NCBI GenBank assembly: GCA_016181175.1
Contig: JACOZV010000001.1
Location: forward strand, 182,185-246,184
Source: Candidatus Yanofskybacteria bacterium
Lineage (GTDB): Bacteria > Patescibacteriota > Minisyncoccia > 2-02-FULL-40-12 > IGHO2-01-FULL-4-A
Reading direction: 5' to 3'
Length of the DNA stretch: 64,000 nt
Each line of letters opens with the position of its first letter. Position 1 is the first letter of the stretch. The position numbers and the translations under genes were made by a program. Below are positions 24,532 through 27,561 of this stretch, piece by piece. The notes below the pieces were generated by a model that was not told where the DNA came from, did not search any database, and saw only the letters and a program-made list of their open reading frames with translations.

Positions 24532-27500
24532 ATGATGAATTTATATTTTTATAAAAACTATTTGGTCGTATCACTAATTATGGCCGGAGTCTTTTTGGCA
24601 TCGGTTTTTTTGTTTTCAACTTTATTTACTCAAGCCGCTGAAGAGGCGCAAATCCAAGCCGCCATTGAGGACTTAAGTTCTGCTGTTGGGCAGGATATAA
24701 AATCGGAGGAACAAGCGAAAGAACTGTGCAATCAGGAGCAATATCTTGATATTTGCGCAGATATCGGGAAGAAGCACGGTCTTTACACAGAAGTCGAAGT
24801 GGCGCAAGTGGACGCCTTTTTAAATGAAGTAAAGGGGCAGGTTTTGGAGGATATAAAAGCCTGCCAGGATGAGTCATGTTTGATAAAAGTTGCCAACTTA
24901 TTGGCTCAAAAAGTTAAGGTTAATAACCCGACTTTGGCTACTAATTTTAAATTAACCTCTACAATTATTGAACAAAAAAACTCTGTTATTCAGGCTGCCA
25001 AGGAGGTTGGTGTTAATTTTCGTGACTGCGAGGCAATGAATCCAGATACGGCTCCAGTTGATTTATTAAGGAAGTGCGCCAAATTAGCCAAAGATTCTCG
25101 TGTTCAAAAATACATACCGGAAGAAAAAAGGTTACTCGCCGCGGAGTTTGAAGACTCAGCCACTATTAAATTAAGAGAAGCCCTGTCTGCCGGCAAGTAC
25201 CAATGTGGCGACGGAACTCTTGAGGGGTGCGGAAACTTTTGCTTGAATCCGATTCAAGGAACTAGTATTCCTCCGGTCTGCTCTCAAATCGCTTCTGAAA
25301 TATTCGGATCAGAAGGGGTAAAACAATTGGAAGCGGCCCATCAACAAGTCGGGCAAGTCAAAGATTATTACTCTAAAAAATTTATTCTCGTATTGCCTGA
25401 TGGTAGTGAAATAGTAGGTGAAAGACAGATAAGGAATAGATGCGACCAGGCATTTTCCAATCGTAACTTAGAAGTTGCCAGGGCTTGTGGCAGTTTTGCA
25501 GTAAGTAATGGGTTTGTCTCTCAAGCTGAAGTGGACAAGGGGCTTAAATTAATGGAGTCGTTCACTCAAAAGAGCCAGAATGTTAACTTTGAGCAGTGTT
25601 TATCTAATCCCGCCTCTTGCCGCGATTTTCTTCCCGAAGATGAGATTGGGAGTTTTGACGCTGGTAATCAGATATTTGAAATTATGAAGACAGAAATTGG
25701 CTTTGACCCGCAACAATGCGAACGTGGCGCGGTTGATGAGTCCATTGGTAAAAAATGTTTTGAAGGTTCAAAGAGGGCTTTGGCAAAAATGGAAAGTTTG
25801 GGTCTTGCCGGCCAATCGCGGGAAGCCCGATTTATTATTGAGGATATTAAGAGACATGTTTCCGAGGGGGAAAATTTAATCAAAAGAAAAGATGAATTCA
25901 GGGAGGTGTTCAACCAGCAAGGCGGCCCAGGCGGATGTCGGTCAGAGGGGGAATGTTACTCCTATTGTTCTAATCCTACCAATGGTCCGGAATGTATTTC
26001 CTTTGGGGCCAAGCAAAATATTTCTGGTTTCAGAGGACAGGAAGCAGTGCAAAAGTTACAAGAATATAATCAAAATCTTCAAAGGCCTGGTTTGACTTCA
26101 GATAGCCAGTACCCCCAATTTCCTGGGCAAGGCCCTTACCCGGGTTTCCAGCCTGGTTATGTCCCGCCAGGACAAGTTCCTGGATTTACCCAGCCTGGTC
26201 CCGGGTTCAATCCTCCGCCAGGGACGGGACCGATTGGACCGTCTCCGGAATGTTTTGCCGCGATTCAGTCAGGCGATTTTATAAAAGCGAAAGCGGTTTG
26301 CACCTCTCCCAACATATCAGACGATCATACCTCAACATGTCAGGCCAGGCCGTATATAGAGTGTCCGGCAGGCCAGTATCATGCCGAATCATTTAGAAAT
26401 GAAGACGGTTGTTGGATAGACGGACCTTGTACGATTCCGAGTTACTCGCCGGGACTTTATCCAACCTATTCTCCATACCCAACTGGTTCCCAGGGGCCAT
26501 ACCCGACATATTCACCAGGTACTAATAGTGGTTGGATAAATAAGACCTGGAGTTTTAAAGACGGTTCTACGCAACACTCATCAATTCTTAACAGAATAGA
26601 CAGTGAATATGCCGGTCATATAAATAGGGTGTATAATGACTGTTTGAATAAATACTTTGCCGGTTGGAAACCTGGCGGCGGCGACCAGAATAATTGGCAA
26701 GAATTCGGTATTCCTGTTTGTTCTGATACCGCATCAACTACGGTTTCGCCTTTTCCGACCTATTCTCCATACCCAACTGGTTCCACTTATCCAACTTATT
26801 CGCCAGGTCCAGGTTCTGGTGGTTGTCCGTCAGGTTATCATTATCATGGCGAATCAGGGGGGTTCTGCATGAACGACCAGGAAAATTATGGCGGTACTTG
26901 TTATGATTCTGTCGGTACAAGTAGGATTACTTGTCCTACCCAGCCGACATATTCTCCTTATCCATCATCTTCTTCTTGTCCGTCAGGTCAATGGTGGGAT
27001 AGTGTAACGAGTTCTTGTAGATCAAATACTTCATATGGAGGTTGTACGGGTACAAGCCAGTCATCTTGTACATCAGTAGCAAATTGTTATTGGAACTCTG
27101 CTGATAACTATTGTTTTTATCAAAGCACAAGCTATACCCCATCTCCAACCTGCTCCTCTACTCAATATTGGAATGGTTCATCTTGTGTAGACAACTCCAC
27201 GACTTCTACATATACACCCTATCCGACGTCCACTTACACGACTACTTATACACCACCACCATCATGCTCATCAGACCAATACTGGGATGGAAGCGCTTGT
27301 GTGGCTAACCCGACTCCTTATCCTACGGCTGATCCTGCTACTGCGTGTGCTAATTCTGGAGGAACTTGGGATGGCTCGACTTGTCTATATACGACGCCAC
27401 CCCCAACATCTGGCCTCTTTCCTAGCTATATAGTAACGCACTGTCAGCAGTTAGGAAGGAGCTGGAATGGTAAAATTTGCGAAGCAAACGGACTTTTCGC

Positions 27501-27561
27501 ACGATTCTATGAGAATAGCGGTCTGGCCAGTATATTGCGTCTTTTCTATATGGTTCACTAG
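24532..27561 (+). CDS. large Cys-rich secreted protein with Pro-rich and 'TYSPYPTGS' repeats
   Basis: 1009 aa, signal/TM, more than 50 Cys. Repeated 'PTYSPYPTGS..YPTYSPG' units and 'C.S.QYW.GS.C' modules in the C-terminal third. Confidence 0.5.
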   Translation: MMNLYFYKNYLVVSLIMAGVFLASVFLFSTLFTQAAEEAQIQAAIEDLSSAVGQDIKSEEQAKELCNQEQYLDICADIGKKHGLYTEVEVAQVDAFLNEVKGQVLEDIKACQDESCLIKVANLLAQKVKVNNPTLATNFKLTSTIIEQKNSVIQAAKEVGVNFRDCEAMNPDTAPVDLLRKCAKLAKDSRVQKYIPEEKRLLAAEFEDSATIKLREALSAGKYQCGDGTLEGCGNFCLNPIQGTSIPPVCSQIASEIFGSEGVKQLEAAHQQVGQVKDYYSKKFILVLPDGSEIVGERQIRNRCDQAFSNRNLEVARACGSFAVSNGFVSQAEVDKGLKLMESFTQKSQNVNFEQCLSNPASCRDFLPEDEIGSFDAGNQIFEIMKTEIGFDPQQCERGAVDESIGKKCFEGSKRALAKMESLGLAGQSREARFIIEDIKRHVSEGENLIKRKDEFREVFNQQGGPGGCRSEGECYSYCSNPTNGPECISFGAKQNISGFRGQEAVQKLQEYNQNLQRPGLTSDSQYPQFPGQGPYPGFQPGYVPPGQVPGFTQPGPGFNPPPGTGPIGPSPECFAAIQSGDFIKAKAVCTSPNISDDHTSTCQARPYIECPAGQYHAESFRNEDGCWIDGPCTIPSYSPGLYPTYSPYPTGSQGPYPTYSPGTNSGWINKTWSFKDGSTQHSSILNRIDSEYAGHINRVYNDCLNKYFAGWKPGGGDQNNWQEFGIPVCSDTASTTVSPFPTYSPYPTGSTYPTYSPGPGSGGCPSGYHYHGESGGFCMNDQENYGGTCYDSVGTSRITCPTQPTYSPYPSSSSCPSGQWWDSVTSSCRSNTSYGGCTGTSQSSCTSVANCYWNSADNYCFYQSTSYTPSPTCSSTQYWNGSSCVDNSTTSTYTPYPTSTYTTTYTPPPSCSSDQYWDGSACVANPTPYPTADPATACANSGGTWDGSTCLYTTPPPTSGLFPSYIVTHCQQLGRSWNGKICEANGLFARFYENSGLASILRLFYMVH

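Follow-up and report, generated by a model that had tools for sequence, protein, structure and literature searches.

A cysteine-rich secreted modular protein and an NPF-tailed membrane protein encoded as a conserved gene pair in Parcubacteria: a candidate two-gene envelope system

The open reading frame (ORF) at positions 24532..27561, plus strand, of a 64,000-nucleotide stretch of DNA (the whole of which is referred to here as the window) starts with ATG and encodes a protein of 1009 amino acids, as an earlier reading made from the letters alone (the sequence-only reading) had proposed. The source organism is a Candidatus Yanofskybacteria metagenome-assembled genome (MAG), which belongs to the Parcubacteria in the candidate phyla radiation (CPR). 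A protein that is 100% identical has been deposited from a Candidatus Yanofskybacteria MAG as HYT61_01060, hypothetical, with the start annotated 16 residues later. The longer version from the ATG appears more plausible, since the homologues retain a K/R-containing N-region ahead of the hydrophobic core. The protein contains 46 cysteines, fewer than the more than 50 claimed previously yet far above chance: they amount to 4.56% of the residues versus 0.88% in the other 50 ORFs of the window (P ~6e-19 by the binomial distribution).

The gene directly upstream (24207..24482, plus strand) encodes a small single-pass membrane protein of 91 residues counted from a TTG codon, while an in-frame TTG at 24237 corresponds to the deposited 81-residue version. 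The tail of this protein, ...KAAEDAAKAANPFKATNPLEGVEANPFEEAKKVLNPFN, contains four NP[FL] motifs arranged in the pattern KAAEDAAKAANPF-x3-NPLEGVEANPF-x2-AKKVLNPF, and it is almost invariant in the family. A homologue of the small gene is located directly upstream of the large gene, on the same strand, in all 15 distinct loci examined. These loci were reached from the large protein (L001/L002, L003, L004, L005, L006, L007 and L008) and, independently, from the small one (L010-L016, at least seven loci), and in four more genomes the two genes bear consecutive NCBI locus tags. The partner family comprises 338 clusters at 90% identity, all of them unnamed, and four NP[FL] motifs are present in 119 of the 120 clusters listed. 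No Pfam or NCBIfam model matches the small partner. A scan for promoters and terminators around the gene pair returned no more than was obtained in shuffled sequence. At one locus (L015, 10328-12724) the large gene is broken into at least three overlapping frame pieces and is seemingly truncated, with the partner and the flanking glycosyltransferase (GT) genes intact; the split reflects either pseudogenization or faulty assembly.

The large protein begins with a Sec-type signal peptide (residues 1-35; 24532..24636, plus strand, as for all features of the ORF described below), recognized in the sequence by Lys8, a hydrophobic stretch at residues 11-32 and a likely cleavage site TQA/AEE. The homologues have signal peptides of the same build, with K/R in the n-region, a hydrophobic core and an AxA-type site (ANA/A, VEA/E, ASA/Q, VFA/Q). 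The signal peptide and the retention of this cleavage motif bear out the earlier description of a Cys-rich secreted protein.

The signal peptide is followed by an all-helical N-terminal domain of about 475 residues (residues 36-510; 24637..26061), which is conserved and is the signature of the family. It contains 20 cysteines, read as 10 disulfides. The invariant columns of its alignment are solely Cys, Gly, Ala, Leu and Phe, the near-invariant ones are mostly Cys together with small or hydrophobic residues, and no conserved polar constellation pointing to catalysis was found there. The domain closes with a 4-Cys helical module, GGPGGCRSEGECYSYCSNPTNGPECISFGAKQ... (residues 464-510; 25921..26061), present as a single copy in the window protein. 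Alignment of slices of the domain with hhalign gives a probability of 39% for residues 35-94 against residues 454-510, and of 80% for one 12-column match. These weak hints suggest that the 475-residue head may itself consist of degenerate 4-Cys modules.

The next segment is a conserved Pro/Gly/Gln-rich spacer (residues 518-570; 26083..26241), whose central part, PGQGPYPGFQPGYVPPGQVPGFTQPGPGFNPPPG at residues 531-564, is the Pro/Gly/Gln segment noticed previously. The spacer sequence is retained in distant homologues, for example as GQGPYPGFQPPGFGGVPPGQTPGFTAPGPGF in P0065. In Pfam the window protein matches only the Pro-rich repeats of cytadhesin P30, and this match is below significance (E 3.9). 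The spacer leads to a disulfide-stapled helical hairpin, PSPECFAAIQSGDFIKAKAVC (residues 571-590), and a 4-Cys module, CQARPYIECPAGQYHAESFRNEDGCWIDGPC (residues 603-633), which together occupy 26242..26430 and whose columns are nearly invariant in alignment A3. An AlphaFold2 model of residues 567-1009, calculated with 34 sequences and having a predicted local distance difference test (pLDDT) score of 70, places helices at residues 572-590 and gives a mean pLDDT of 87-89 for residues 607-636.

Linker 1 (residues 634-664; 26431..26523) contains YSPGLYPTYSPYPTGSQGPYPTYSPG and connects these modules to a small alpha/beta domain, GWINKTWSFKDGST...GIPVCSD (residues 665-732; 26524..26727), with one disulfide, C704-C730. 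This domain is modelled as strand-strand-helix-strand-strand with pLDDT 81-92 over residues 667-716, and its best match in the PDB, the B1 domain of protein L, is non-significant (E 0.28). Linker 2 (residues 733-764; 26728..26823), with PFPTYSPYPTGSTYPTYSPGPGSGG, is followed by another 4-Cys module, CPSGYHYHGESGGFCMNDQENYGGTCYDSVGTSRITC (residues 765-801; 26824..26934), which is conserved in the clade of the window and is modelled as two beta-hairpins with pLDDT 81-91. The pLDDT falls below 50 at residues 639-664, 738-761, 806-812 and 889-905, segments that include the YSP and the Thr/Ser/Pro stretches.

The C-terminal third of the protein is dominated by an array of putative disulfide-closed beta-hairpins joined by Thr/Ser/Pro/Tyr linkers (residues 802-983; 26935..27480). 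The array contains a 14-residue hairpin CPSGQWWD...C, a 4-Cys C..C..CYW..C unit, two 12-residue hairpins of the form C-S-S-x-QYW[ND]GS-x-C and two variants. The QYW[ND]GS modules that the sequence-only reading had placed in this region are present as two exact copies, CSSTQYWNGSSC (residues 874-885) and CSSDQYWDGSAC (residues 912-923), with three variants on a common plan, CPSGQWWDSVTSSC (residues 816-829), CANSGGTWDGSTC (residues 939-951) and CQQLGRSWNGKIC (residues 971-983). In the AlphaFold2 model the first strand of the unit is formed by Q-Y-W, the turn by N/D-G-S-S, and the second strand starts from the closing Cys, and the C-x-QYW-x-GS-C units are accordingly modelled as disulfide-closed beta-hairpins of 12-14 residues. 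A census of 95 family proteins counts 460 hairpins, with 285 copies of a 12-residue consensus C[PS]SGQYWNG[ST][AS]C and 170 of a 14-residue consensus CPSGQWWDxAxxxC. In 22% of the copies the N-G-[ST] of the 12-residue form is replaced by D-G, a substitution that fits a type I' turn, and the N-G-[ST] sequon was rejected as evidence for N-glycosylation.

The protein ends with a C-terminal amphipathic helix, ANGLFARFYENSGLASILRLFYMVH (residues 984-1009; 27481..27558), modelled as two short helices within residues 988-1007. Nearly all full-length members, including those of the sister class described below, end in such a helix of 15-20 residues, which is often preceded by PPP[ST]SG and often has a basic last residue. 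The last 18 residues have a mean hydropathy of +0.35 versus -0.64 in controls and a hydrophobic moment of 1.03 versus 0.49. None of the NCBIfam sorting-signal models (LPXTG, PEP-CTERM, GlyGly-CTERM, PGF-CTERM and others) matches the window protein or four of its relatives. The Pro-rich spacer with the amphipathic tail may act as an in-plane membrane anchor or as an unrecognised sorting signal. An unrelated secreted protein of 266 residues encoded in the window (13180-13980) has an ending of the same kind, a Pro/Ser/Thr spacer followed by AILPFISFWQFLRNLIF, and its C-terminus is ...SRAILPFISFWQFLRNLIF.

The helical N-terminal domain, the upstream partner gene and the C-terminal amphipathic helix had all been absent from the sequence-only reading. 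As a structural description, an exported protein built of disulfide-stapled modules like beads on a string can be stated with high confidence. Comparison of the homologues, by their pattern of coverage and identity, separates a constant head from a variable C-terminal array, and the number of modules ranges from 0 to 18 per protein across the family.

The sequence-only reading had likened repeated P[TS]YSPYPTGS units to the C-terminal domain (CTD) heptads of RNA polymerase II. The repeats themselves are present: six YSP motifs occur in three clusters (residues 638/646/660, 744/756 and 807), and PTYSPYPTGS...YPTYSPG is found twice with a third, partial copy. The gaps between successive motifs are 8, 14, 84, 12 and 51 residues with no heptad period, and Tandem Repeats Finder detects no DNA tandem repeat within the ORF. 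The linkers and the CTD (YSPTSPS) are alike in the YSP tripeptide and in their Tyr/Ser/Pro/Thr composition, but the window protein differs in its non-heptad spacing, its extracellular context and its lack of a DNA repeat, so that the likeness is one of composition only. The CTD analogy was therefore rejected, given the irregular spacing, the missing tandem period and the modelling of these stretches as disordered. Because the AlphaFold2 pLDDT is below 50 there, the YSP stretches are read as predicted disordered Pro/Thr/Ser/Tyr linkers joining folded modules. The Y[ST]P motifs drop to 0-3 in most homologues below ~45% identity, the more distant of which mostly have linkers without any Y[ST]P, whereas the folded modules persist.

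The cysteines of the N-terminal domain are lost in pairs. In its alignment C66/C75 are lost with C111/C116, and C304/C319 and C469/C475 are each lost as a pair. Both C66/C75 and C111/C116 are missing in a Wolfebacteria/Liptonbacteria-like branch, C304/C319 are confined to two branches of the alignment, and C469/C475 vanish together while C479/C488 remain. The number of cysteines past residue 45 is even in 72 of the 78 complete family members. CPR bacteria have been reported to possess MdbA/DsbA-like oxidoreductases, often adjoining VKOR (bioRxiv 10.1101/335083). Taken together, these observations are strong indirect evidence that the exported protein is cross-linked through its 46 cysteines by about 23 structural disulfides.

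The family is restricted in its lineage. A word-indexed search returned 95 homologues of 550-1650 residues from Yanofsky-, Staskawicz-, Sung-, Wolfe-, Magasanik-, Lipton-, Kaiser-, Vogel- and Zambryskibacteria and from Paceibacterota. In an exhaustive HMMER search, a profile of the N-terminal domain was compared with 1.84 billion cluster representatives and matched 1269 of them at E<=1e-3, 987 at 1e-10 and 295 at 1e-30; every match with a source name comes from Parcubacteria or Patescibacteria. The distribution that the sequence-only reading had proposed to check is thus that of a family confined to related lineages. About 100 representatives match the 478-position N-terminal domain from end to end, and the window ORF itself scores 706.8 bits (E 1e-213) against this 478-position A2 profile. 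A description of the Cys-rich family was not found in the literature that was searched.

The remaining matches include a sister class (P0288-P0333 and beyond), which aligns solely with positions ~415-475 of the profile, 7-12 times in tandem. The repeated element is the 4-Cys helical module of about 47 residues, GGPGGC-x5-C-x3-C-x8-C-x2-F[AG]...G[LF]I..EEA, also written GPGGCxxxxxCxxYCxDPxHxxECxxFA in this class, whose proteins are 550-1550 residues long. One example is the Azambacteria protein OGD34492.1, named "Kazal-like domain-containing protein" in UniRef, and the class thus belongs to Parcubacteria as well. Pfam and NCBIfam scans of four tandem-module relatives give nothing significant. 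The mature N-terminus in the sister class is often A[NS]PFDI.FPI.ELGNC, and some of the proteins begin with AANPF.

The tandem-module proteins have in common with the window family the GGPGGCxxxxxCxxYCxxxxxxxECxxF[AG] module, the Pro/Gly segment, CPAxP...C 4-Cys units and the amphipathic tail. In L009 (5128-7374) a small NPF-tail gene also lies upstream, as in the window family, and the divergent small ORF that precedes the relative P0093 encodes three NPF motifs and one NPV. The tandem-module proteins differ in that 7-12 modules replace the 475-residue head and in that most of them lack the QYW hairpin array. The relationship names a superfamily, not a function.

The gene at 24532..27561 is proposed to encode the large subunit of a Parcubacteria-specific two-gene envelope system, a stalk or an adhesin. 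As a whole explanation this is about evenly poised between being right and wrong, and the function as adhesin or stalk, taken on its own, is a tentative assignment that falls somewhat short of even. The protein is unlikely to be an enzyme, since it matches no catalytic family and its invariant positions are confined to Cys, Gly, Ala, Leu and Phe. It would instead form an extended, non-enzymatic surface fibril resistant to proteases and shear. It would be retained at the cell through its C-terminal amphipathic helix, through the small membrane protein encoded with it, which has four NPF motifs, or through both. In each hairpin a conserved pair of aromatic residues (YW or WW) would be exposed at an Asn/Asp-Gly turn, an arrangement like that in the sugar-binding loop of CBM14, and the hairpins could serve as multivalent, low-affinity binders of glycans or surfaces, on the cell's own wall or on a host. 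The Pro/Thr/Ser/Tyr linkers would act as spacers, possibly but not necessarily O-glycosylated in the clade of the window. Candidatus Yanofskybacteria have been reported as parasites attached to Methanothrix (PMC10936435), which makes host attachment an attractive role.

Several observations weigh against this assignment. The small partner has a charge bias (K+R) of 0.9 on the N-terminal side versus 2.9 on the C-terminal side, with a C-terminal flank that is also acidic; this leaves its topology ambiguous, so that the NPF tail could be cytoplasmic and would then never meet the secreted protein. The hydrophobic run of the C-terminal tail spans only ~12-15 residues, and the helix has neither the length nor the hydrophobicity of a transmembrane anchor. 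Adjacent Tyr and Trp residues in a strand face opposite sides, and the likeness of the hairpin to CBM14 spans only ~20 residues and may be convergent. Two members, P0072 and P0073, have 22 and 16 cysteines and no hairpins, and since some members lack them, binding by hairpins is not a universal function of the family. The predicted TM-scores of the models are low (0.44 and 0.26), so the mutual placement of the domains in them is of low confidence. The Yanofskybacteria transcriptome paper (PMC10936435) does not mention the Cys-rich family.

A more far-reaching version of the stalk or adhesin proposal sees in the gene pair an unrecognised surface apparatus common to the Parcubacteria, but this appears unlikely. 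External NPF motifs would dock the helical modules, by analogy with the NPF peptides bound by helical EH domains, and the variable hairpin fingers would recognise and contact the host, which for Yanofskybacteria would be a methanogenic archaeon. The tail would represent a new CPR sorting or anchoring signal, common to unrelated secreted proteins such as the product of the window ORF at 13180-13980.

The strongest alternative, which is compatible with a role as surface stalk or adhesin, starts from the genes around the pair. Upstream on the plus strand (13950-20946) four consecutive paralogous membrane proteins of ~530-630 residues are encoded, three of which have C-terminal TPR repeats, while the fourth (15833-17422) has no TPR and is the only one clearly matched by PMT_2/PMT; a weak, sub-threshold match to TMTC_DUF1736 comes from one of the three with TPR repeats. 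To judge from these matches, the block looks like a set of bacterial counterparts of the TMTC-type GT-C O-mannosyltransferases. Downstream, an envelope-glycan island extends over 27614-44300 and 51632-55889, with about eight GT4 and two GT2 glycosyltransferases, a second PMT_2 protein (39231-40928), a GDP-mannose-dehydratase-like epimerase, an ABC-transporter ATPase, NeuB, a DegT-type aminotransferase, a radical-SAM/SPASM enzyme and a GFO/IDH/MocA oxidoreductase.

The large protein could accordingly be a substrate of the PMT/TMTC-like GT-C enzymes, its YSP and Thr/Ser/Pro stretches being O-glycosylated to give a mucin-like envelope glycoprotein. In actinobacteria and fungi, PMT enzymes typically act on secreted proteins at disordered linkers rich in Pro, Thr and Ser. 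The position of the four membrane proteins on the same strand, the large GT4/GT2 and sugar-nucleotide island, and the recurrence of the same order in L001/L002 and L015 also agree with this explanation. However, the neighborhood of GT-C/TPR and GT4/GT2 genes is found in only 3 of the 15 loci (the window, L001/L002 and L015), and as the gene order is identical in these three, the linkage probably reflects the shared ancestry of one clade. In loci of other lineages no GT-C gene occurs within 8-10 kb of the pair, which is surrounded there by BipA, SHMT/FolD, primase/sigma-70, P-type ATPase and toxin-antitoxin genes, many of them housekeeping. No GT lies near the gene in L003 or L008, where the protein has 14 and 13 Y[ST]P motifs, respectively, and the first downstream GT4 gene in the window is convergent to the large gene and is therefore not co-transcribed with it. 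The exchange of N-G-[ST] for D-G in the hairpins, which fits a turn, also speaks against glycosylation as the explanation, and that the protein is chiefly a glycosylation substrate is thus doubtful. Because the GT genes are kept near the pair in one clade only, while the partner is present in all 15 loci, the conserved functional partner of the large protein is probably the NPF protein and not the glycosyltransferases; in the clade of the window the pair happens to be situated within the large envelope-glycan island.

P-type (E1-E2) ATPase genes near the pair (L004, 5727-8375 and 13513-15579; L005, 5121-7052) were rejected as a lead, since this adjacency, seen in 2 of the 15 loci, is probably a coincidence. 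In L008 the pair is adjoined by genes for glycoside hydrolase family 1 (GH1), an EamA-type transporter and a GH42-like protein.

The second alternative concerns the hairpins, which could belong to a divergent but true CBM14/peritrophin-A lectin binding chitin or an N-acetylglucosamine polymer. Several homologues are labelled PF01607 (CBM_14) in precomputed annotation and reach 25-37 bits on rescanning, compared with a cut-off of 22.1, and the hairpin shows the CPxGxx[FW][DN]x5C pattern of the Cys4-Cys5 loop. These scores are, however, sums of matches to positions 21-48 of the 53 positions of the hidden Markov model (mostly 27-48), with no single stretch above the cut-off, and the window protein gives no CBM_14 match even at E<=10. 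Compared with the CBM14/peritrophin-A domain (PF01607; tachycitin type), the 14-residue form shares the C-x12-C spacing and the CPxGxx[FW]D of the Cys4-Cys5 beta-hairpin, but it has two cysteines in 12-14 residues instead of six cysteines (three disulfides) in ~53. By its sequence, the module resembles one hairpin of CBM14 without being a member of that family.

A search with a pure hairpin array as query retrieved other short secreted proteins with C-x10-C hairpins, whose matches in Pfam (TIL, EB, CC, DUF5874 and CBM_14) are all partial; the sequence cut-off is reached by TIL, EB and CC alone, through the addition of short matches. EGF_3 is also among the sub-threshold partial matches of related hairpin arrays. 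The matches to TIL, EB, CC and DUF5874 are as weak as those to CBM_14, and such weak Pfam matches represent generic cross-matching among Cys-rich repeats. Scanned against Pfam and NCBIfam, the window protein yields no significant match, a phmmer search with the hairpin-rich homologue P0065 finds no match among PDB sequences, and Foldseek returns nothing better than E 0.28 for the C-terminal model against the PDB, which contains no solved structure with a fold matching the models of the window protein. The earlier statement that the Cys modules are not recognisable has thus held against these searches, and identification with a common domain such as EGF or an anaphylatoxin-like domain was not obtained. 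With no PDB match by sequence or by fold, a true CBM14 lectin is improbable.

That the cysteines are metal or Fe-S ligands or redox centers is very improbable, because, despite the very high Cys content and the P-type ATPase genes flanking the pair in L004 and L005, the cysteines are lost strictly in pairs with even counts in 72 of 78 members, their spacing differs between modules, conserved CxxC, CxxH or His partners are not found, the signal peptide implies an extracytoplasmic location, and the ATPase adjacency is limited to two of the 15 loci.

Other genes of the window also encode proteins of the cell surface or of extracytoplasmic type. The gene at 8734-12336 (plus strand) encodes a protein of 1200 residues that has a membrane anchor at its N-terminus, a high content of Thr, Ser, Gly and Val, few cysteines and no Pfam match. 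By its composition it is a better candidate for an S-layer or surface sheet than the Cys-rich protein. The gene at 21024-22754 (plus strand) encodes a secreted protein of 576 residues with a Pro/Thr linker, two KVYVQG.G.L.W..TLEDFNAAGYNWADVQ units and a C-terminal SH3_3 domain, the latter suggesting that it may bind the cell wall, and a homologue occupies the equivalent position in L001/L002. A 1066-residue protein predicted to be extracytoplasmic, with a lamin-tail domain and a PQQ/BamB-like beta-propeller, is encoded at 4897-8097 (plus strand), and a 435-residue protein, likewise predicted to be extracytoplasmic, with a GSDH/TrAA12-like beta-propeller (the fold of soluble glucose/sorbosone dehydrogenase) at 22787-24094 (plus strand). 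The gene at 68-721 (plus strand) matches the C-terminal third of GH1 (model positions 323-451 of 453) and is probably cut by the edge of the window. Rfam and tRNA scans of the window found nothing.

Among uncultivated bacteria the Parcubacteria are some of the most abundant; those that have been cultivated or enriched live attached to other microbes, and their surface molecules are barely known. The present analysis describes a lineage-restricted family of ~1270 cluster representatives, a strictly conserved two-gene unit and three previously undescribed building blocks: the 4-Cys helical module, the aromatic disulfide hairpin of 12-14 residues and the C-terminal amphipathic tail. Profile models of these elements could serve to annotate thousands of hypothetical proteins, and the proteins themselves are candidates for studies of surface localization and host binding. 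The more striking resemblances, by contrast, fail on closer inspection: the likeness to the CTD is compositional, that to CBM14 is partial and the linkage to glycosyltransferases is confined to one clade.

Among known systems, the closest in general build are the Gram-positive fibrillar adhesins of the streptococcal antigen I/II type, which likewise are secreted and have a helical region, a conserved Pro-rich segment and small repeats that vary between lineages. A second comparison is offered by the Mycoplasma cytadhesin P30, the Pro-rich repeats of which give the only, non-significant, Pfam match of the window protein. Both differ from it in having no relation in sequence or fold, and the window protein has no LPXTG/sortase signal and would be stabilized by disulfides rather than by isopeptide bonds.

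The tail may be compared with the C-terminal amphipathic-helix anchor of low-molecular-weight penicillin-binding proteins (E. coli PBP5 and PBP6), since the window protein is likewise secreted and its final helix of ~18 residues combines a high hydrophobic moment with the lack of any hydrophobic run of transmembrane length. The two are not homologous, many members of the Parcubacteria family have a PPP[ST]SG spacer before the helix, and anchoring is here a prediction. Secreted Cys-rich surface proteins built of repeats are a familiar type, but neither Pfam nor NCBIfam contains this family, its helical head, the 4-Cys helical module, the aromatic hairpin, the tail or the NPF partner.

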